From: Patescibacteria group bacterium
Lineage (GTDB): Bacteria > Patescibacteriota > Patescibacteriia > Magasanikbacterales > GWA2-37-8
Reading direction: 5' to 3'
DNA: 44,042 bases
Assembly (NCBI GenBank): GCA_004321885.1
Contig: SCQK01000008.1
Span: 1-44,042, forward strand
Part shown: piece by piece, positions 1,965 to 40,979 of the stretch
Layout: each line of letters begins with the position of its first letter
Numbering within the stretch: position 1 is the first letter of the stretch
Made by a program: the position numbers and the translations under genes
The notes under the pieces: model-generated
Seen by the model: the letters and a program-made list of their open reading frames with translations, nothing else
What the model was told of the DNA's origin: nothing
The model's database searches: none

Positions 1965-1970
1965 AAACCT

Positions 1971-2005
1971 CACCCCCTGCCCCTCCCCTTATAGGGGAGG
2001 GTGCG
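1971..2005. repeat. P1 palindromic element (CCCTCCCC-TTATA-GGGGAGGG with one extended arm).
   Basis: One of about 16 copies of this family in the window. Confidence 0.7.
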
Positions 2006-2777: not shown

Positions 2778-2802
2778 ATGGTTTTGATTAGTGAATGAGT
2801 AC

Positions 2803-2840
2803 CCCTCTCTATCTCTCCCCTTATCAAGGGGAGAGAAAAG
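2803..2840. repeat. P1 palindromic element, CTCTC variant (ctctcccc-ttatcaa-ggggagag).
   Basis: Inverted repeat in the SPFH 5' region. Confidence 0.6.
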
Positions 2841-2886
2841 TAAGTGTACAGTACAATACCTCTGTTTTTTTGTCCACAGGGGTGGC

Positions 2887-2914
2887 TTGCGTGAAAAAAA
2901 ATATCTGCTATAAT
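2887..2914 (+). promoter_or_regulatory. Sigma70-like promoter: TTGCGT, a 16-nt spacer, TATAAT.
   Basis: -35 element at 2887-2892 and a consensus -10 at 2909-2914. It would drive the DUF4430 / surface-protein operon. Confidence 0.45.
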
Positions 2915-3101
2915 GCACTGGCGACAATTCAAGTGTATTTGTGGAAGTGAGGTATCGGGCTTTTGGCCCTTAATTCCTCCACTGTGCCGCAACGGTAATG
3001 GTCGCCTTCGGCGACCGAGTCCGGTCTTCAAATATACTAAATCTCCCGAGCAGGAAATATTGTTTTCGCGTCAATTTCTGCTCGGCAGAAATTTTTTTGT
3101 T

Positions 3102-3716
3102 ATGAAAGGGATTCTTCCCCGCCCCGGGCAGGTCAGAATGACAATCGGGATGTTGATTTTGCTGATTTTAATCGCGATAGCGAGCGGGGTGTGGTTGTTG
3201 TTGGCAGAACAGAAAGATGCGAATACCCCTCTCTCTGTCTCTCCCCTAAAGGGGGAGAGAAGTTTGGATGCCTCTCCCCCTCCTGACATTCAGGCTCCAC
3301 AGCCCCGACGTAAAGTCGGGGACTATGGAGCCAGCCTCGTTACCCCTCCCCAACCCTCCTCCCGAAACAAGTTCGGGACAAGCTCTTATAAAGTGGAGGG
3401 TACGGCCACGAGCGCGCCGGTCGTTGGCGCGAAAATGCTCATCGGCGGGCAAGAGTTTATTTTTTCCGTCCCCGCGGGCGCCACGGTTTATGACGCCATG
3501 AAACAGCTGGCGGATGAGAAAAAAATATTTTTCAGCGGCAAAGAATACGCGGGCATGGGATTTTTTGCGGAAGAAATAAACGGCTTGCAAAACGGTGACG
3601 GCGGCAAGTATTGGATTTATTATGTCAACGGCCAGCAGGCAAAAGTAGGAGTCTCAAGTTATTTAATTAAATCAAGTGACATAATTTCTTGGGTGTATGA
3701 AAACGAAAAATTTTAG
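3102..3716 (+). CDS. DUF4430-like (transcobalamin-like C-terminal domain) membrane-anchored protein. The start is ambiguous among ATGs at 3102, 3138 and 3150.
   Basis: N-terminal TM (MLILLILIAIASGVWLLLA). The C-terminus (GKYWIYYVNGQQAKVGVSSYLIKSSDIISWVYE) matches the DUF4430 pattern. The linker contains two in-frame palindromic elements. The ATG at 3138 lies inside a P6 element. Confidence 0.55.
   Translation: MKGILPRPGQVRMTIGMLILLILIAIASGVWLLLAEQKDANTPLSVSPLKGERSLDASPPPDIQAPQPRRKVGDYGASLVTPPQPSSRNKFGTSSYKVEGTATSAPVVGAKMLIGGQEFIFSVPAGATVYDAMKQLADEKKIFFSGKEYAGMGFFAEEINGLQNGDGGKYWIYYVNGQQAKVGVSSYLIKSSDIISWVYENEKF
3108..3143. repeat. P6-family element; it overlaps the probable start codon.
   Basis: Compare the copy at 1928-1964. 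Confidence 0.6.
3226..3262. repeat. P1 palindromic element, in-frame inside the CDS (it encodes …PLSVSPLKGERS…).
   Basis: cccctctctctgtctctcccc-taaag-ggggagagaag. Confidence 0.65.
3295..3335. repeat. P2 hairpin element (gctccacagccccgac-gtaaa-gtcggggactatggagc), in-frame inside the CDS (it encodes …APQPRRKVGDYGAS…).
   Basis: A second copy lies at 40567-40606, intergenic. Confidence 0.65.
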
Positions 3717-19664: not shown

Positions 19665-20135
19665 TTAGTAATGGTATTTACGTCCGCCGTTTATCATCAG
19701 CGCGCGGTAAATTTGCTCCAGCAAAAACACCCGGCACATTTGGTGCGTGAAAGTCAGGGGGGACAAAGAAAGCTCTAAATCGGCTTTTTGCCGGACGGAA
19801 GAATGTAGGCCGAGCGGTCCGCCGATAATAAAGGTGATATTTTTTCGCGTCTGTGTCTGGGAAAGCTGTTTTGCCAATTCGGTGGAAGAAAATTGTTTGC
19901 CGTGTTCGTCCAGGGCGATGATAAAATCATCCGTTTTCGGCAGGGCGTTTAAAATTTTGTCCGCTTCTTTTTGTTTTATCGTTTCCGGGCTGTCTTTTTC
20001 GCCAAAGGCCTCTTCTTTCAGTTCGCGGATTTCAATTTTCGTAAAAGGTTTCAACCGTTTTAAATATTCGGCTTCGGCCTCGCGCCAATACGATTCTTTC
20101 AGCTTGCCCAGGCAGATGATGTTAGTTTTTGGCAT
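19665..20135 (-). CDS. rlmH: 23S rRNA m3Psi1915 methyltransferase RlmH (SPOUT family).
   Basis: Collinear with RlmH (…IIGGPLGL…LTFTHQMCRVFLLEQIYRA…). Confidence 0.8.
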   Translation of the reverse strand: MPKTNIICLGKLKESYWREAEAEYLKRLKPFTKIEIRELKEEAFGEKDSPETIKQKEADKILNALPKTDDFIIALDEHGKQFSSTELAKQLSQTQTRKNITFIIGGPLGLHSSVRQKADLELSLSPLTFTHQMCRVFLLEQIYRALMINGGRKYHY

Positions 20136-21345
20136 ACGATTGCCATTCTTTTTTTAATTTCAAAAATTTGTCTTCGGCGATGGCCGCGCGGATTTGTTTC
20201 ATCAAATCCAAAAAGAAATGCAGATTGTGAATGGTGGCCAGGCGCATGGCCGAGAGCTCCCCGGCGTTAAAAAGATGGCGCAAGTAGGCGCGGGAATAAT
20301 GTTGGCAGGTGTGACAGGCGCAGTTTTTGTCTATCGGCTTGGCGTCGCTAGCGAACCGCGAGTTGGTGATGTTTATGCGATACCCCTCCCCAGCCCTCCC
20401 CTTATTAAGGGGAGGGAGAAAGAGCATGCCGTGGCGGGCCAAGCGGGTGGGGGCCACGCAGTCAAACATGTCTATGCCGCGTTCCACCACTTCAAAAATG
20501 TCCAAAGGCGACAGCCCCAGACCCATGCTGTAGTGGGGCTTGTCGGGCGGAAGCAGGGGGTAGACCCAATCCAAAATTTCTTTGGTCGCGGACATGTTGT
20601 AGCCGATAGATTCGCCGCCGACGGCGATGCCGTCAAAATCCATGGCGGAAATATGGCGCGCTGATTCTTCACGCAAGTCGCGGTGATTGGAGCCCTGGAC
20701 GATGCCGAAGAGATGTTGCCGATACCCCTCCCTCACCCTCCCCTTATAAAGGGGAGGGGATGATAGATGATATTCCAAACATCTTTTCGCCCATCTGTGC
20801 GTGCGTTCCATTGCTTCGCGCGCATACTTAGCATCAACATTGTCCGGCGCGCATTCGTCAAAGGCCATGATAATGTCCGCGTCCAGTTTGTGCTGGATTT
20901 TTATTGACGACTCGGGCGTGAAGCGATGCGTGGAGCCGTCTATGTGGCTTTTGAAGGTGACACCGTCCTTGTCTATTTTCGCCAAACGCTCTTTGCGAAA
21001 CTCCACCCCTTGTCCCTCCCCTAATAGGGGAGGAATTTGTTTGCCCAAACTGAAAACCTGGAATCCGCCGCTGTCGGTAAGCATTGGTCTGTCCCAATTC
21101 ATGAATTTGTGCAAGCCGCCCAGTTTGGCGACAATATCTTCGCCCGGGCGTAGATGCAAATGGTAAGTGTTTCCTAAAATTATTTGCGCGTTCAAATCGC
21201 GCAAATCAAAAGAATCCAGGGATTTTACGGTCGCTTGCGTGCCCACGGGCATGAAAGACGGTGTTTCAATGTCGCCGTGCTCGGTATGAATTACGCCCGT
21301 CCGCGCTCGGCTGTTTTTGTCTTGATGAAACGTTTCAAAAAACAT
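20122..21345 (-). CDS. tgt: Queuine tRNA-ribosyltransferase (tRNA-guanine transglycosylase). It carries three in-frame palindromic-element insertions.
   Basis: Full-length Tgt similarity including the zinc site CxCxxC…H (CACHTCQHYSRAYLRHL). The insertions encode [25 protein letters not shown] and PPLLGEGQG. Confidence 0.9.
   Translation of the reverse strand: MFFETFHQDKNSRARTGVIHTEHGDIETPSFMPVGTQATVKSLDSFDLRDLNAQIILGNTYHLHLRPGEDIVAKLGGLHKFMNWDRPMLTDSGGFQVFSLGKQIPPLLGEGQGVEFRKERLAKIDKDGVTFKSHIDGSTHRFTPESSIKIQHKLDADIIMAFDECAPDNVDAKYAREAMERTHRWAKRCLEYHLSSPPLYKGRVREGYRQHLFGIVQGSNHRDLREESARHISAMDFDGIAVGGESIGYNMSATKEILDWVYPLLPPDKPHYSMGLGLSPLDIFEVVERGIDMFDCVAPTRLARHGMLFLPPLNKGRAGEGYRINITNSRFASDAKPIDKNCACHTCQHYSRAYLRHLFNAGELSAMRLATIHNLHFFLDLMKQIRAAIAEDKFLKLKKEWQSYAKN
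20384..20421. repeat. P1 palindromic element, in-frame in tgt.
   Basis: cccctccccagccctcccc-ttattaa-ggggagggagaaag. Confidence 0.75.
20725..20770. repeat. P1 palindromic element, in-frame in tgt.
   Basis: cccctccctcaccctcccc-ttataaa-ggggagggga. Confidence 0.75.
21003..21034. repeat. P1 palindromic element, in-frame in tgt.
   Basis: ccctcccc-taata-ggggagg. Confidence 0.7.
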
Positions 21346-21401
21346 ACTTTAACTAAATGGTAAGGTATTTTGCAGGTTATGGCAAGACATGGTATGCTTT
21401 T

Positions 21402-21489
21402 GTCATTGCGAGGACCCGCCCGGGGCGGGGACGAAGCAATCCCATTCATAAGCGCGAGAGATTGCTTCGGCCTACGGCCTCGCAATGAC
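21402..21489. repeat. P3 MITE-like palindrome in the tgt/uvrD divergent intergenic region.
   Basis: gtcattgcgag…cgaagcaatccc … gattgcttcgg…ctcgcaatgac. Confidence 0.65.
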
Positions 21490-21494
21490 AACCT

Positions 21495-23711
21495 GTGTAT
21501 ATGATTGATTTTTCCAGCGACCTCAATGACGAACAATTAAATGTCGTTCTTAATGGCGACGGCCCGTGCTTGGTGTTGGCCGGAGCCGGCAGCGGCAAGA
21601 CGCGCGCCATTGTTTACCGTGCGGCTTATCTTTTGGAACAGGGCGTGAAGCCGGAAAATATTTTGCTCGTGACTTTTACCAACAAGGCGGCAGGGGAGAT
21701 GAAAGAAAGGGTGCGCGGACTCACCGGCAACGAGGGCTTGCCCTGGGCCGGTACTTTTCACAGCATCGGCAACAGAATACTGCGCCACCACGCCATGGCT
21801 TTGGGTTACATGTCCAATTTTACGATTTTGGATTCCGATGACAGCGAGTCATTGATAAAAATTTGCGCGAAAGACTCCCACCCCCCCTCAATCCCCCCCT
21901 CGGGCAGGGGGGGAGGATGGACCGGTGGTAAATTTCCCTCGGCCGGTAATTTGCAGGCGATAATCAGCTTTTCTCGCAACGCGGAAATGGCGCTTGCTGA
22001 AGTGTTGGAAACGCGCTGGCCCCAGTATGAGATGTGGGCCGACCCCCTGGCGGAAATCGCCAAGGAATACGAAAAAAGAAAATTACAGGCCAACGCCATG
22101 GATTTTGACGACTTGCTGGTGAACTTTTCGCGTTTGCTAAACGACCCGAAGATTTTGAAAAAATATTCCGGGCAGTTTCAATATATTCTGGTTGACGAGT
22201 ATCAGGATACGAATAAAATTCAGGCGTCCATCGTGAAAAAATTGGCCACCGAGCACGGAAATATTTTGGTCGTTGGCGACGACGCGCAAAGCATTTATTC
22301 TTTCCGCGCGGCCGACATAGAAAACATCTTGCGTTTTGAAAAAGATTTTCCCAAAGCGAAAATTTTCAAGCTGGAAACCAATTACCGCAGTAGCCAGGAA
22401 ATTTTGGACGTGGCCAACAACGTCATCGCCAACAATCCAAAACAGATAAAAAAGGAATTACATACCCCTCCCCAACCCTCCCCTTATAAAGGGGAGGGAG
22501 ATAGCGTTTCCTCCCCCTTTATAAGGGGGAGGTTAGGTGGGGGTGTCAAGCCCGAACTGCATCCGAAAATTGACCAAAGCGACGAGGCAAATTTCGTGGC
22601 CGAGAAAATCGCTTCGCTGATTCGCGGCGGAGTGGAACCGACCGAGCTGGCCGTGCTTTTCCGCGCGGCGCATCACAGCCAGCAATTGGAGCTTGAACTA
22701 ATGCGCATAGGCATTGATTACGATTATCGCGGCGGCCTGCGCTTTTTTGAACGCTCGCACGTGAAAGACGCCCTGGCCTACTTGCGCATACTGAACAATC
22801 TGGCCGACACGACCGCCTGGCTGCGCGTGCTTTTGTTTGAAGACGGCATCGGTCCGGTGGCGGCCGGCAAAATCGTGGATTATATAAGGAAGGTGGAAAA
22901 CGTGGAAGAAGTGGCCAAGGCCGGAGAGGTTTTGGGCGACAAAGCGCAGACGGGCTGGAATAATTTTTTACAAATTTGGAACAGCTTGCTGAATGTGGGG
23001 CCGGGCAGTCCGGCGCAACTGGTGGAGGCGATTTTGGCTTCGCCTTACCGCGATCGGCTGGAAGACGATTTTGGCAACGGCAACCAGCGGGCCGAAGATT
23101 TGAAACAGCTGGCGATTTTCGCGCGCAAATACGAAAAGCTGGATGACTTTTTATCCGAGGCGGCTTTGCAAGAGGCGTTTAGCATGCAGAGGAAAAAAGA
23201 AAGCGCCAGCAAAGCGCACGAGGGAAAAATTGTTCTTTCTACTATACATCAGGCCAAGGGGCTGGAGTGGTCCGGCGTGTTTGTGATTAATTTGCTGGAC
23301 GGGCAGTTTCCCAACGAACGCGCTTTGCGGGAAAACGGCGGGCTGGAAGAAGAGCGGCGCTTGTTTTATGTGGCGGTTACCCGCGCCAAAAAATATTTGT
23401 ATTTGTCGTATCCGCTGGCCGGCCCGGCCCGAGGCGGACAAAGCGGGGGCTGGGGAGACAGCGCGTCCGCGCCGAGCTCGTTTTTGGGTGAAATCAGTCC
23501 GGATTTGCTGGAAGATAGTTCGCTATTGCTTAAGCCGAGTTCGGTTTTTGATTTCTCTTCCCTTGCTAAGGGGAGAGATAGTGAGGGGTCGATCACATAC
23601 GTGGACGACCCGGATGCCGAGACCCGCCCCCACACCAAAGATTTTGGTGTGGGGGCCCGTCCCTTCCGCTTCAAACCCGGCAGTTTTTTGCGCGACGTGG
23701 GAGATTTATAA
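21495..23711 (+). CDS. uvrD: UvrD/PcrA/Rep-family ATP-dependent DNA helicase. It carries four in-frame palindromic-element insertions.
   Basis: Walker A GAGSGKT and helicase motifs across the length. The start is a GTG at 21495 or an ATG at 21501. Confidence 0.9.
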   Translation: MYMIDFSSDLNDEQLNVVLNGDGPCLVLAGAGSGKTRAIVYRAAYLLEQGVKPENILLVTFTNKAAGEMKERVRGLTGNEGLPWAGTFHSIGNRILRHHAMALGYMSNFTILDSDDSESLIKICAKDSHPPSIPPSGRGGGWTGGKFPSAGNLQAIISFSRNAEMALAEVLETRWPQYEMWADPLAEIAKEYEKRKLQANAMDFDDLLVNFSRLLNDPKILKKYSGQFQYILVDEYQDTNKIQASIVKKLATEHGNILVVGDDAQSIYSFRAADIENILRFEKDFPKAKIFKLETNYRSSQEILDVANNVIANNPKQIKKELHTPPQPSPYKGEGDSVSSPFIRGRLGGGVKPELHPKIDQSDEANFVAEKIASLIRGGVEPTELAVLFRAAHHSQQLELELMRIGIDYDYRGGLRFFERSHVKDALAYLRILNNLADTTAWLRVLLFEDGIGPVAAGKIVDYIRKVENVEEVAKAGEVLGDKAQTGWNNFLQIWNSLLNVGPGSPAQLVEAILASPYRDRLEDDFGNGNQRAEDLKQLAIFARKYEKLDDFLSEAALQEAFSMQRKKESASKAHEGKIVLSTIHQAKGLEWSGVFVINLLDGQFPNERALRENGGLEEERRLFYVAVTRAKKYLYLSYPLAGPARGGQSGGWGDSASAPSSFLGEISPDLLEDSSLLLKPSSVFDFSSLAKGRDSEGSITYVDDPDAETRPHTKDFGVGARPFRFKPGSFLRDVGDL
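21877..21920. repeat. P1-variant palindrome, in-frame in uvrD (it encodes SHPPSIPPSGRGGGW).
   Basis: cccaccccccctcaatcccccc-tcgggca-gggggggagg. Confidence 0.65.
22465..22545. repeat. Two tandem P1 elements in opposite orientation, in-frame in uvrD (they encode PSPYKGEGDSVSSPFIRGRLGGGV).
   Basis: Copy a at 22465-22502 and copy b at 22509-22545. Confidence 0.75.
23555..23590. repeat. P1 element (CTCTC variant), in-frame near the uvrD C-terminus (it encodes SLAKGRDSEGS).
   Basis: ctcttccc-ttgctaa-ggggagag…gagggg. Confidence 0.65.
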
Positions 23712-28289: not shown

Positions 28290-28444
28290 ATTATTGACAT
28301 TTTTTTAGCTGTATAAAGCCATTATAGCACACTTTTAGATATTTGTCAAGAGCAGATTGACATATTTAGGCATTTAGAATAGAAATTGGCTTGGCTAAAA
28401 TTAGCCAAAAAAGAAAAAATAAGGCGGAAAGTGAGGCGTACCCC

Positions 28445-28473
28445 TTGACATATTTTAAGATATATGCTATAAT
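28445..28473 (+). promoter_or_regulatory. Near-consensus sigma70 promoter: TTGACA, a 17-nt spacer, TATAAT.
   Basis: TTGACA at 28445-28450 and TATAAT at 28468-28473. A weaker TTGACA-type promoter lies at 28357-28385. Confidence 0.6.
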
Positions 28474-28479
28474 GCTCTG

Positions 28480-28691
28480 TTAAGCTGGAAAATCTGAAAA
28501 AAGGGCTGAATAAGCACAAAGGGCTTAACAAACAGGGTGTCATTCTGAACGAAGTGAAGAATCCCTGTCGCACATTTCAATACAAATGGCGGATGACAGA
28601 ACCTGTGGAGGAGAGACCACGGGCGGACACAAAGCCAATTTTCTAAAAGCAATAGGGCCTCTCTCCAATTTGGATAGAGGCCCTTTTCGTT
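28480..28691 (+). ncRNA. Candidate small RNA of about 210 nt, bounded by the consensus promoter and an intrinsic terminator. Identity unknown.
   Basis: No ORF. It contains a P6-like internal hairpin (cagggtgtcattctgaacgaagtgaagaatccctg). Confidence 0.3.
28655..28691 (+). terminator. Intrinsic terminator gggcctctctcc-aatttg-gatagaggccc followed by ttttcgtt.
   Basis: An 11-12-bp stem with one mismatch, followed by a T-tract. Confidence 0.55.
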
Positions 28692-28734
28692 AGCGATGAG
28701 GCGAGCCGCTATAGCGGCAAGCCCATCCGGCTAA

Positions 28735-28752
28735 CGATCCGCCTTTGGCGGA
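28735..28752. repeat. P4 mini-hairpin (gATCCGCC-TTTGG-CGGAT).
   Basis: Further copies at 32303-32319 and 37217-37233. Confidence 0.5.
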
Positions 28753-29100
28753 TGTTGCTTACGCGGATGAGGGAGAGAACTTATTCATTTCCTCATCCGT
28801 TGAAGCAATGTGAACAACAAAGTTTCAACGCCACTTGTCGTGGATTGTACATTAAAATGCTCCTCCGCGAGTCCGGGCGACCGGTCCGCGGGTTGCGAAA
28901 AGCATCGTCTGGTTATTCGTATGAGTAGGAGAGAGTCCTACCGATAACAAGATGATTTCTCTGTTTGCTCCCGCCCAAGGCGGGAGACCGGGCGGAGAGT
29001 GTCCCACGATGCGGCGAAAGCCGAGTCCGGGCGCTCGCGGTCCGGCTATATGCCTACAGAGACATATAGTACCGAGTGCGCCCTAAATCCGATCACAACT

Positions 29101-29125
29101 GTCATCCTGAATTTATTTCAGGATC
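29101..29125. repeat. P5 hairpin (GTCATCCTGAA…TTCAGGATC).
   Basis: Second copy at 37111-37135. Confidence 0.5.
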
Positions 29126-29166
29126 TCCGTTCGGTCGGAGGCGGGGCAGACGATCCCATATCATTT

Positions 29167-29203
29167 CCTCCCCCTTAATAAGGGGGAGGTTAGGAGGGGG
29201 TAA
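29167..29203. repeat. P1 palindromic element.
   Basis: cctccccc-ttaataa-gggggaggttaggaggggg. Confidence 0.65.
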
Positions 29204-29320
29204 ATTGGATCGCCTGCCTCGCCGGAATCCTTGGAGAGAAAAGCGAGTCGGCGCTATTGAGAGAGTAGGCCTGGAGCACTTTGACAATTTATCCACTAAA
29301 GCTGGCAACTGTCGTTTTTT

Positions 29321-29354
29321 CTCCCCTCAATAAGGGGAGGACGAAGGAGGGGTG
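29321..29354. repeat. P1 palindromic element.
   Basis: ctcccctc-aataa-ggggaggacgaaggagggg. Confidence 0.65.
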
Positions 29355-29515
29355 TTGTCATTTTTAGTGGCGCCACCATGGTGGTGGCGAAAGAAAGGAG
29401 GTGCGCCATGAAGCGCACCTATCCGAGTGGGTTTCTTTAGATAAAAAAAAGAAACCCCGCGTTGTGGCTGGCATCCACTTTAATCACTGCCCGCGGCAGA
29501 CGCAGTTCTGTCGCG

Positions 29516-30238: not shown

Positions 30239-30314
30239 TGGTGGACCCGACGGGAGTTGAACCCGTTCCTCTACTTGTCAATGGTAGCATGCTAACCGTT
30301 TACACCACGGGCCC
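30239..30314 (-). tRNA. tRNA of 76 nt with an encoded CCA. The anticodon loop is AUUGACA, so the apparent anticodon is UGA (nominally Ser), but it has a short type-I variable loop. The isotype is uncertain.
   Basis: Minus-strand cloverleaf. Acceptor GGGCCCG/CGGGTCC, D-arm GTGT-AAACGGTTA-GCAT, anticodon arm CTACC-ATTGACA-AGTAG, T-arm ACGGG-TTCAACT-CCCGT, discriminator A, then CCA. A TATAAT about 20 nt upstream of the 5' end. Confidence 0.7.
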
Positions 30315-30550: not shown

Positions 30551-31411
30551 ATGAAGAGCGCCCAGAAGAAGGGGCCGCCGAGCCCCTCGTCTCGGCACAA
30601 CGACCTCGCCTCCCAACACAGGGGGGTGAAGAGCGGAGGAGCCCTCCCCTCCGGCGACGCCAAGTCGCCGAAGAGGAGGCCCTCCAAGATCAACAGCCGC
30701 CAGTTGGAGGGAATGGAATTTCAGTATCTGCTCCTTGACGGGCTTTGGGTCAAATGCAAGCAGTTTGGCTTAAGCGAGCGCAACAATACGGTTCTGCTCT
30801 GCGCCCTGGGCATCACCAAAGAGGGCAAAAGAGAGATCGTTGGCTTTATGACGAGTGACGCCGAGGACGCCGAAAGCTGGGGGCAGATGCTCGCCAATTT
30901 GAAAGAGCGCGGATTGAATAAGGACAAACTCGAGCTGGTCATTGCCGACGACAACGCCGGACTGGTTTCAGCCGTAGGCCACTATCTGCCGGGGGTTAAA
31001 TTACAAAAGTCCGAATGAAGTTATTAAAGAAGTGGTGCTGTGAAAACTTGACTTTTTAGCCACAAAAAGCAAATTGCCGCCGATGTCAAAATTATCTATC
31101 AGTCCAACAGTAGAGAAGAGGCCACCGAGCGGATGAAACAATTCGCCAGGAAGTGGTACGTGGCCGAAGAGAAAGCCGTGAACAGTTTGCGCTTCAATTT
31201 TGAAAAAACATTGACCTACTTTGATTGGCCGCCCGACACCTGGAAAAAAATCAGGACCACCAACATTTTGGAAAGAGAGTTCCGGGAAGTCCGGCGTCGC
31301 ATCAAGGTGTTTGATAATTCGTTCAACGACCAAAACAGCTTACTCCGATACGGCAATTCCATTTTTGACAATCTTAATAATCATTACCCTGCAAAAAGTT
31401 ATACACACTAA
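30551..31411 (+). pseudogene. Degraded IS256-family (Mutator-like) transposase. The N-terminal third is missing and there is a frameshift or deletion between about 31018 and 31090.
   Basis: Fragment 1 is …FQYLLLDGLWVKCK…REIVGFMTSDAEDAESWGQMLANLKERGL…LVIADDNAGLVSAVGHYLPGVKLQ. Fragment 2, in a different frame, is …KQFARKWY…FDWPPDTWKKIRTTNILEREFREVRRRIKVF…. Confidence 0.65.
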
Positions 31412-36207: not shown

Positions 36208-36340
36208 AATGGCGGTATGTCCGCCCGCGTTAGGCCGCAGTGGCGCGTAAGAAATATCTGCGACACACTCGGTGTTTGAGGAACGGCTTGCACAAGCGCT
36301 CCTCTTCACCCGCATAGCGACAAAGGAGATTTCTCGCTTA

Positions 36341-36390
36341 CCCCTCACCAACTCTCCCCTTATAAAGGGGAGAGAGAATGAGGGTAAAGG
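36341..36390. repeat. P1 palindromic element at the right edge of the GC-rich island.
   Basis: cccctcaccaactctcccc-ttataaa-ggggagagagaatgaggg. Confidence 0.6.
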
Positions 36391-37001: not shown

Positions 37002-37245
37002 ATATTTGTCAATACTTAACAAAGATATAAACATGGCAGTTCTTGACACTTTTTCCCCCTTTCTATATACTATTGCCAAGAACGTTACCCCGAGTAATCG
37101 GGGCACCCGAGATCCTGAAACAAGTTCAGGATGACAGGGAACTCGTGGCTGAGCTTCATCGTTCAGCTTTTTGTTAACGACAGAAATTTAAGAATTAAAT
37201 TTCTTGTCAGTTAACAATCCGCCTTTGGCGGATATTCATTATTTA

Positions 37246-37280
37246 CCCCTCCCTGCCCTCCCCTTATTAAGGGGCGGGGA
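37246..37280. repeat. P1 palindromic element immediately upstream of rpsL. Its right arm may serve as the SD.
   Basis: cccctccctgccctcccc-ttattaa-ggggcgggg; the ATG follows 13 nt later. Confidence 0.65.
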
Positions 37281-37721: not shown

Positions 37722-37725
37722 TTTA

Positions 37726-37829
37726 CCCCTCCCTAACCCTCCCCTTATATGCGAAATGAGAGAGGAAACAAAAGCAATGCTTTTGTTTCCGAACGAATGA
37801 GCATATATCCAGGATATAAAGGGGGAGGG
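37726..37829. repeat. P1 element split by a 64-bp secondary insertion (37751-37814) that carries its own hairpin (ggaaacaaaagcaatgcttttgtttcc).
   Basis: The left arm is cccctccctaaccctcccc-ttata (ends 37750). The right arm is tataaa-gggggaggg (37815-37829). Confidence 0.55.
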
Positions 37830-37844
37830 ACTAACGAAACTATT

Positions 37845-40795: not shown

Positions 40796-40835
40796 TCCCT
40801 CCCCTGTTAGGGGAGGGACAAAGGGTGGGGTATGT
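40796..40835. repeat. P1 palindromic element.
   Basis: tccctcccc-tgtta-ggggagggacaaagggtgggg. Confidence 0.6.
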
Positions 40836-40862: not shown

Positions 40863-40979
40863 GTCATTCCGAAGACGCGTTTTGTCATTGCGAGCGAAGC
40901 GAAGCAATCCCATGCGTATTTAAGAAATGCCCTGCTTTTTTGCAAGGGATTGCTTCGTCGCTTCGCTCCTCGCAATGAC
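40863..40979. repeat. P3 MITE-like palindrome (with an extra partial left arm) in the 5' leader of the surface-protein gene. It ends 1 nt before the ATG.
   Basis: gtcattgcgagcgaagcgaagcaatccc…gggattgcttcgtcgcttcgctcctcgcaatgac. Confidence 0.65.

Follow-up and report, generated by a model that had tools for sequence, protein, structure and literature searches.

A very small dispersed palindromic repeat probably inserted in frame in three loops of Tgt in a patescibacterial genome

The stretch of DNA analysed here, hereafter the window, is the complete 44,042-bp contig of one metagenome-assembled genome (MAG) of the Patescibacteria, or Candidate Phyla Radiation (CPR). Its tgt gene, which encodes queuine/preQ1 tRNA-ribosyltransferase, holds three short palindromic segments, and the question raised by this locus is what these segments are and how they can lie inside a conserved gene. 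A first-pass annotation had proposed that they are elements inserted in frame and translated as extra loops. We observed that the open reading frame (ORF) of tgt is intact and that its translation indeed holds all three of the peptides listed at that time; the three copies are present as described, but their bounds were a few bases off and are given here as follows.

20122 to 21345, minus strand: tgt, intact ORF of 407 aa, host of three element copies
20380 to 20416, plus strand: element copy at Tgt site 3, ATACCCCTCCCC-AG-CCCTCCCC-TTATTAA-GGGGAGGG, with the hairpin core at 20394-20416
20723 to 20758, plus strand: element copy at Tgt site 2, TACCCCTCCCT-CA-CCCTCCCC-TTATAAA-GGGGAGGG, with the exact 23-nt core at 20736-20758
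21000 to 21034, plus strand: element copy at Tgt site 1, the most degenerate, ACTCCACCCCTTGT-CCCTCCCC-TAATA-GGGGAGGA, with the core at 21014-21034

Taken with the orthologues and the other copies described below, these inserts very likely belong to a dispersed palindromic repeat that is very small and non-autonomous, and whose genic survivors would lie in frame in permissive surface loops and would be translated.

The identity of the host protein is clear from Pfam (TGT PF01702, E = 4e-146) and from the Zymomonas mobilis TGT of the PDB (E = 1e-106); its closest relatives, several of which are named Magasanikbacteria, are 61-69% identical. In an alignment of 120 Patescibacteria Tgt sequences, the catalytic Asp and the Zn-ligand Cys/His columns are invariant, so the tgt gene of the window is predicted to be functional. 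It had also been called essential, which goes too far: the gene is conserved, yet tgt is not essential in E. coli.

On the plus strand, a C-rich box stands before each of the three tgt copies (ATACCCCTCCCC at site 3, TACCCCTCCCT at site 2 and CTCCACCCCTT at site 1). On the sense strand of tgt the order is therefore C-arm, loop, G-arm and outer G-box, which reads P-P-L-x-K-G-R-x-G-E-G-Y. The copy at site 3, whose RNA hairpin is computed at -27.2 kcal/mol, gives on the minus strand a 13-aa peptide (aa 310-322) between strands E307-309 and E323-325. That at site 2 encodes a 12-aa peptide, aa 197-208, which follows helix 172-195 and precedes strand 211-216, and that at site 1 encodes (I)PPLLGEGQG(VE), aa 103-114 (PPLLGEGQG being aa 104-112), within the coil 96-118.

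When the copies of the window are aligned, the unit appears as an asymmetric element of about 36 nt built of three boxes: the direct C-rich box of consensus TACCCCTCCCC, 2-3 nt, and then CCCTCCCC-TTATAAA-GGGGAGGG, a hairpin in which CCCTCCCC and GGGGAGGG form an 8-bp stem around an A/T loop of 5-7 nt. Aligned copies terminate in (A/T)TACCCC / GGGGTA(A/T). Inverted doublets of 75-95 nt are also found. Neither the third box nor the doublet form was part of the first description of the element, and both are present. The 44 kb hold 15 three-box copies, of which 10 lie in one orientation (plus strand), 4 in the opposite one, and 1 is interrupted by a nested insert. A fourth box makes two of the copies, at 2799-2849 and 36339-36389, fully symmetric.

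Chance does not account for these repeats. The motif CCTCCCC occurs 28 times against 4.5 expected, a number reached in 0 of 100 shuffles, and the 23-mer core, with at most 3 mismatches, is found at six distinct window sites against 0.00 expected (100 shuffles). Folding is less telling. A doublet in the neighbouring uvrD gene (22462-22546) folds at -58.7 kcal/mol with z = -5.9, whereas for the singlet hairpins the gain in stability over dinucleotide-shuffled versions of their G/C-run sequence is not large (z of about -1 to -2.9); fold energy by itself is therefore weak evidence, and the doublet alone stands out. An Rfam search of the window returned one tRNA only, and no known RNA family overlaps the element copies.

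Comparison with the 120 orthologues bears out the reading of insertion. Tgt is usually about 380-385 aa long, against 407 aa in the window; the inserts are missing from most orthologues, and near relatives differ by clean insertions whose lengths are multiples of three. Length variation within the family is found mainly at the three insert positions, where loops range over 10-60 aa (site 1), 10-42 aa (site 2) and 5-35 aa (site 3) and most orthologues have short unrelated loops. The gaps of the alignment with Z. mobilis TGT coincide with the same three positions.

Element-like Pro...Gly peptides were detected in 19 of the 120 orthologues, with 8, 7 and 13 carriers at sites 1, 2 and 3. On a neighbour-joining tree built from the conserved columns these carriers are scattered, which demands at least 7, 5 and 11 changes at the three sites, and their nearest neighbours are mostly non-carriers. 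In the relative L001, whose Tgt is 63% identical, a variant of the element, CCCCTCTCC-TTTACAA-GGAGAGGGG-CA-GGGGGTGAGGTAT, occupies all three sites. In L002, sites 1 and 3 each hold an inverted doublet and site 2 is empty; L204 and L207 carry another variant at site 1. Presence and absence can be compared directly in two close pairs: L002 and L208, with 85% nucleotide identity over tgt, differ by clean insertions of 75 nt and 72 nt at sites 1 and 3, and L210 and L209 (89% nucleotide identity) by 84 nt at site 2, where the copy of L210 is a doublet. The same Tgt loops also receive unrelated repeat families, with peptides of the SDEAIQ-, PAGRQ-, VEGS- and IASS..RND-type.

The scatter of the carriers, the lineage-specific variants and the unrelated repeats in the same loops together point to recurrent independent insertion into permissive loops, and these sequences support the view that the three loops of Tgt have been colonised repeatedly and independently across Patescibacteria lineages. 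By the first-pass annotation, homologous residues at the same positions in unrelated lineages would have marked ancestral sequence. Similar residues do occur in other lineages, but they belong to element variants specific to those lineages and are not ancestral. In the protein collection no strain variant of the window Tgt was found; its cluster has a single member (n=1), the next relative being 68-69% identical. A scan of genome contigs with the Tgt alignment gave, among the matches listed, few CPR loci beside a majority of Tgt sequences from Firmicutes and Chloroflexi. Besides, Tgt of L051 and L060 (Nomurabacteria, Paceibacteria; 436-438 aa) has unrelated insertions of 30-40 aa at site 2, a loop that thus appears, by these sequences, to be expandable well beyond the Magasanikbacteria-like clade.

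The position of the inserts in the protein was examined on an AlphaFold2 model of the window Tgt built on the 120-sequence alignment (pLDDT 86, pTM 0.88; TM 0.93 to Z. mobilis TGT 1ozm, normalised to the target). In this model the insert of site 1 falls in the coil 96-118, with pLDDT below 50. At site 2, residues 200-204 are predicted with pLDDT below 50 and the block has a mean of 59, and at site 3 the insert would form a turn between strands 307-309 and 323-325 (block mean pLDDT 61). All three are modelled as low-confidence coil between conserved secondary-structure elements.

The element is not confined to tgt. Adjacent to it lies a gene for a helicase, in which further copies were observed:

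21495 to 23711, plus strand: uvrD/pcrA-type helicase (Pfam UvrD-helicase/UvrD_C), 738 aa, host of further copies
21880 to 21914, plus strand: variant copy in uvrD, CCCACCCCCCCTCAA-TCCCCCCC-TCGGGCA-GGGGGGGA, giving the peptide SHPPSIPPSG
22462 to 22546, plus strand: inverted doublet in uvrD, made of an A-unit (22462-22498) and a B-unit (22510-22546), giving the peptide PPQPSPYKGEGDSVSSPFIRG and forming a single long hairpin

UvrD has 738 aa in the window against 664-681 aa in four of five relatives, the fifth, L002, having 748 aa with inserts of its own. In these four orthologues, clean gaps of 10 aa and 21 aa face exactly the element copies of the window. The C-terminus has further extras of 7, 8 and 14 aa relative to the same four orthologues, and two of them coincide with small palindromes: those at 23555-23577 and 23621-23661 (CTCTTCCC-TTGCTAA-GGGGAGAG; GACCCGCCCCCACACCAAA/TTTGGTGTGGGGGCCCGTC) match the 8-aa and the 14-aa extras. 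The 7-aa one, PARGGQS, lies near these two C-terminal palindromes. As judged from such alignments, UvrD may carry up to six repeat-derived inserts.

The divergent arrangement of uvrD and tgt is kept in L002, L204, L205, L206 and L208 as in the window (20122-23711), and in L204 both genes have an element copy. The UvrD inserts of L002 and L204 (HPPPLLGKDG and HPNPLLQGEG) share a fourth hotspot, which is empty in the window. The gap between tgt and uvrD is itself occupied, at 21400-21492, by a second palindromic family of about 93 nt, TTGTCATTGCGAGG...CGAAGCAATC...GATTGCTTCG...CCTCGCAATGACAA, with a related arm at 40900-40957. A repeat of the GTCATCCCGAGCG...TCGAGGGATC type, apparently related to this family, is in frame at Tgt site 1 of L209 (Magasanikbacteria), where it gives the peptide PSAVEGSLKPDERDSS.

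Elsewhere on the contig, the copies of the element are distributed as follows:

3224 to 3259, plus strand: copy in ORF 2913-3716, in the linker between an N-terminal membrane helix and a DUF4430 domain, NTPLSVSPLKGERS
1966 to 2001, plus strand: intergenic copy just 3' of the stop codon of the Band_7 gene
2799 to 2849, plus strand: four-box symmetric copy, GTACCCC...GTGTAC, within the long ORF 2007-2927
36339 to 36389, plus strand: four-box symmetric copy, TTACCCCTCACC...GAGGGTAA, outside Pfam-supported genes or genes of at least 200 aa and spanned by a 54-aa ORF only
37243 to 37278, plus strand: intergenic copy directly 5' of rpsL
37724 to 37830, plus strand: split copy between rpsL and rpsG, its TTATA|ATAAA loop interrupted by a 67-nt insert (37751-37817)
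29167 to 29203, plus strand: copy in B orientation, CCTCCCCC-TTAATAA-GGGGGAGG-TTA-GGAGGGGGTAA, in a region without any ORF of at least 100 aa
29319 to 29355, plus strand: copy in B orientation, in the same ORF-poor region
40797 to 40832, plus strand: copy in B orientation, inside a 150-aa ORF without Pfam match

Credible coding sequence holds 7 of the 15 copies (three in tgt, as many in the uvrD-type helicase gene next to it and one in the gene of the DUF4430 membrane protein), 5 of the 15 lie outside recognised coding sequence (two flanking the Band_7 gene, the one at 36339, the one 5' of rpsL and the one in the rpsL-rpsG gap), and the other three are unassigned. A place inside the Band_7 gene was considered for the 2799-2849 copy and rejected, as the Met start (MSLTWWIIV...) and the membrane helix lie downstream; by its sequence context this copy is probably 5' of the gene. 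Pfam-supported or long ORFs cover about 75% of the window, and genic copies are mildly depleted (P=0.06), in a test that took 8 of the 15 copies as genic, including the 2799-2849 copy later placed outside coding sequence. The genic copies are read in varied frames and orientations, for example as PPLNKGR, PSPYKGEG, SPFIRGRLGGG or TPLSVSPLKGE. As the peptides vary with frame and orientation and copies are also intergenic, the conserved object is the DNA, not the peptide. This dispersal over intergenic DNA and other genes, in both orientations, in several frames and at sites in coil, supports the comparison with the elements of Rickettsia that the first-pass annotation had made.

The 67-nt insert in the split copy is unrelated to the element and has its own hairpin (GGAAACAAAAGCAATGCTTTTGTTTCC), which makes it a nested insertion and suggests that the A/T loop of the element can itself be an insertion target. 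Given this nested insertion, and an S7 Pfam match that covers the long ORF only from aa 37 onwards, the most likely start of rpsG is 37846 and not 37749. The region 28290-29480 (about 1.2 kb), where two of the B-orientation copies lie, has no ORF of at least 100 aa and no Rfam match. The GC-skew profile of the window displays no switch near the tgt-uvrD hotspot.

Is this element peculiar to one lineage? We observed the exact 23-nt core in at least 120 metagenome contig loci, plus one viral contig; this was the single match when viral contigs were scanned with the core, and the scan gave no sign of a phage origin. The three-box anatomy, with its TTA spacer and its outer box GGGTGGGGTAA, is repeated in the metagenome loci. 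Among the matches listed, the HIP1 octamer of cyanobacteria is abundant in 68 of the 121 loci, and the proteins on four HIP1-rich loci belong to Desmonostoc, to Nostoc and to an Oculatellaceae cyanobacterium that clusters with Crinalium. In the cyanobacterial loci (L083-L202, e.g. L084, L134 and L165), core and outer box form a doublet within larger units resembling miniature transposable elements bounded by inverted repeats (MITEs). At least two such MITE-like families enclose the doublets, with terminal inverted repeats (TIRs) AGAGGATGTTTGAAAAGT... and CATTGGTGTCAACTTAA....

Among the matches listed, only 15 of the 124 copies lie in open frames of at least 150 aa, against 71% of random positions, so that the element family is mainly intergenic in general. 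The exact core is nevertheless found in frame in MnmA of Candidatus Nomurabacteria, in a WecB/Nudix protein of Candidatus Falkowbacteria, and in TsaE, UvrD and a Jag-like protein. The Falkowbacteria insert is kept in all six of the aligned cluster members (93-100% identical), among which only the hairpin loop differs.

An almost identical core and outer box are thus common to Nomurabacteria, Falkowbacteria, Magasanikbacteria and Nostocales cyanobacteria. A bolder proposal can be built on this, namely that an element of about 36 nt, shared by Nostocales and at least three CPR lineages, has repeatedly entered the same loops of Tgt, UvrD, MnmA and TsaE, which would imply cross-phylum mobilisation without any element-encoded protein, together with a directed insertion preference or exapted Pro/Gly loops, beyond passive tolerance. 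We put it forward only tentatively, as something that could be true but that we do not expect to be.

How, then, would the copies have settled in genes? In the explanation that we favour, copies insert around the genome and, CPR genomes being gene-dense, many would land in genes. The survivors would be those that leave the frame intact, escape the single frame of each orientation that holds a stop (TAA in the loop) and lie in permissive surface loops. As the C-run and G-run arms would give Pro...Gly in either orientation, the resulting peptide would be loop-friendly, the ribosome would simply translate the inserted copies, and their survival would reflect the tolerance of Pro/Gly-rich surface loops. 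Every genic copy keeps the frame and avoids the stop-containing one, and the clean insertions are all multiples of three.

Several points weigh against this explanation or limit it. We infer translation from frame conservation, since the genes are intact and conserved, the insertions measure 30, 63, 72, 75 and 84 nt and the TAA frame is avoided. No mobilising transposase was found in the window, in which there is an IS256/Mutator fragment only, and where filled sites could best be compared with empty ones, no target-site duplication can be made out. In Tgt, the loops of sites 2 and 3 are longer by 4-5 aa than the median orthologue loop, and by 6-8 aa than those of insert-free orthologues (such as L002, P0014 and P0005), for an element of 12-13 aa. 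Where orthologues are empty, a native G-Y or Y (HHGYRQ in L002) stands in the place of the terminal G-Y of the element. A net gain smaller than the element means that at sites 2 and 3 either loop residues were replaced or lost on insertion or the boundaries of the element differ from those that we read. The idea that the copies were simply interpolated into an otherwise collinear protein must accordingly be given up, all three sites being hypervariable and two of them gaining less than the length of the element. Lastly, the copies are over-concentrated. tgt represents 2.8% of the window but holds 3 of the 15 copies (binomial P=0.008), uvrD is also enriched (P=0.04), and all three Tgt sites are filled in three lineages against 0.05 expected; such clustering and triple filling are not fully explained by random insertion plus tolerance.

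The IS256/Mutator fragment is a 155-aa ORF at 30551-31018, which matches positions 152-252 of 379 of the profile only and adjoins a tRNA-Ser gene (30239-30314). Junctions were also compared, and no consistent target motif was seen in them, with a mere hint of CG beside the GGGGTAT end.

The over-concentration in tgt and uvrD and the triple filling are the first arguments for another explanation, in which the inserts are exapted or targeted: either hairpins or Pro/Gly loops have been selected in nucleic-acid-handling genes (tgt, uvrD and others), or the element has a target preference. Possible roles of exapted copies would be in mRNA structure (pausing or stability), as G-rich motifs, or as protein loops touching tRNA or DNA. 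The same three Tgt loops are moreover filled in lineages whose flanking DNA has 0-1 hairpins per 10 kb, and the right-hand junction GGTAT|CG is common to L001 and the window at sites 2 and 3. Within coding sequence the orientation is about 11:3 in favour of the G-rich outer box downstream on the sense strand, Di Nocera et al. 2013 (PMC3733652) likewise noted that intragenic repetitive extragenic palindromic sequences (REPs) gather in genes for repair and for RNA handling, and the Falkowbacteria insert is retained across closely related strains. However, part of this signal is ascertainment bias, the relatives having been picked for carrying inserts. Most orthologues manage without the insert, and the changing peptides yield no single conserved motif. 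The unrelated SDEAIQ-, PAGRQ- and VEGS-type repeats in the same loops speak for permissiveness rather than for a specific function. We regard exaptation or targeting as an unlikely alternative to tolerated insertion.

An ancient shared insertion, that is a single ancestral entry into the three Tgt loops followed by gene conversion with other copies and by loss in most lineages, appears less probable still. The window and L001 agree in the three sites, in orientation and in the right junction, and the close relatives P0066 and P0033 both carry all three inserts, as this explanation would have it. But many independent and precise losses would be required to leave carriers as scattered as those of the tree, with its 7, 5 and 11 changes. 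In addition, relatives with about 92% identical Tgt (P0101 and P0078) differ in presence or absence, the insertion points at site 3 lie about two codons apart in L002 and in the window, and some lineages have singlets where others have doublets.

It is very improbable that the elements are untranslated, whether taken out of the mRNA or skipped by the ribosome in the manner of T4 gene 60 or of the 'byp' elements of yeast mitochondria. Coding sequence does contain stable hairpins (-17 to -59 kcal/mol), but skipping would require neither a kept frame and stop avoidance nor lengths in multiples of three. Introns, inteins and bypass elements were likewise rejected on frame and stop-codon grounds. 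The last possibility, ordinary lineage-specific Pro/Gly-rich protein loops whose DNA palindromy is incidental and which are not mobile DNA, is effectively refuted: loop length at the three sites does vary greatly even where no element can be recognised, but identical 23-nt cores in unrelated genes, intergenic DNA and at least 120 unrelated metagenome loci, and a three-box anatomy conserved at the DNA level in both orientations, leave it hardly any credit.

If the inserts are a tolerated dispersed repeat, with which known repeats do they belong? Rickettsia palindromic elements (RPEs), as reported in PMC10969869 after Ogata et al. 2000 and 2002, are selfish palindromic repeats of about 100-150 bp found in frame in many unrelated housekeeping genes and also in non-coding DNA; in genes they are translated, and the segments that they encode are predicted to suit the protein fold. 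The same 2024 review on MITEs presents RPEs as the outstanding in-frame palindromic case and considers that similar ones may exist elsewhere (PMC10969869). RPEs end in a CGTC tag (PMC3733652). The present element resembles them in its in-frame insertion in unrelated genes (Tgt three times, UvrD at least three times and the DUF4430 protein) and in occupying loops that, according to the model, are compatible with the fold. It differs from them by its unit of about 36 nt or doublet of 75-95 nt, the absence of a CGTC tag, the G/C-run hairpin with a third, direct box and the lack of sequence relation to any RPE. RPEs are also confined to Rickettsia, whereas the present element is found in CPR and in cyanobacteria.

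REPs of 20-40 bp, GTAG- or CGTC-tagged and present as singlets and inverted dimers, were described by Di Nocera, De Gregorio & Rocco 2013 as mostly intergenic (PMC3733652). An intragenic minority occurs in several phyla in the genes of UvrABCD/RecBCD, tRNA synthetases and tRNA pseudouridine synthase, where linkers or flexible loops were suggested (PMC3733652). The short size of the element, which had been presented as new, is therefore not so: REPs of 20-40 bp inside genes, that of UvrD among them, had been reported by 2013 (PMC3733652). Like the tagged REPs, the element is an imperfect palindrome of 20-40 bp, dispersed and in high copy number (here 15 in 44 kb). Unlike them, it has neither GTAG nor CGTC, its outer end being GGGGTA(A/T). 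Patescibacteria are moreover outside the surveyed phyla, and about half of the copies of the contig are genic against a small minority of REPs (PMC3733652).

REPINs are REP doublets that form hairpins; they are extragenic and linked to a cognate gene for a REP-associated tyrosine transposase (RAYT) (Bertels & Rainey 2011, PMC3116915). An inverted pair with a short spacer similarly makes one long hairpin in uvrD, L002 and the cyanobacterial loci, and singlets coexist with such doublets. In the window, 7 of the 15 copies are in credible coding sequence; no RAYT was seen, and none of the approximately 40 ORFs scanned on the 44-kb contig, a single contig of the MAG, matches Y1_Tnp. As to MITEs, the doublets and the four-box copies have inverted outer boxes, and no target-site duplication is recognisable at filled-versus-empty sites.

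Elhai et al., in 2008 (Genome Res 18:1484), are said to have described the small dispersed repeats (SDRs) SDR1-8 of Nostoc and its relatives, mobile hairpin-forming repeats of 21-27 nt that are often nested in MITEs or in each other. That work is cited in PMC3116915 and PMC4390886. These SDRs were reportedly described only in a coherent cyanobacterial subgroup. By that description the present element is alike in being a tiny hairpin nested in TIR-bearing elements of Nostocales, with a nested insertion also at 37724-37830 of the window. The difference lies in the in-frame colonisation of conserved CPR enzymes, which is unreported as far as our literature searches reach: within their limited coverage, we found no report of in-frame or palindromic elements in CPR/Patescibacteria. 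The element thus belongs with the intragenic REP- and RPE-like palindromic repeats; it extends a known behaviour to the CPR and is no new kind of system.

What goes beyond the ordinary is the repeated colonisation of three Tgt loops across Patescibacteria and the presence of a near-identical core and outer box in CPR and Nostocales. CPR genomes count as streamlined, but here about half of a selfish repeat's copies lie inside conserved genes, where the inserts add about 25 aa to Tgt and about 65 aa to UvrD. Odd Pro/Gly-rich segments and length variation in CPR proteins can therefore be repeat insertions and not lineage-specific domains, which bears on annotation, orthology and structure prediction. 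The insertions also show, as a natural map, where Tgt and UvrD have loops that tolerate insertion, and the filled and empty sites of orthologues with 85-89% nucleotide identity offer material for working out how tiny elements move. Finally, the core shared between CPR and Nostocales poses the question of whether it has spread horizontally or whether elements too small to code are mobilised by a common host-encoded machinery.

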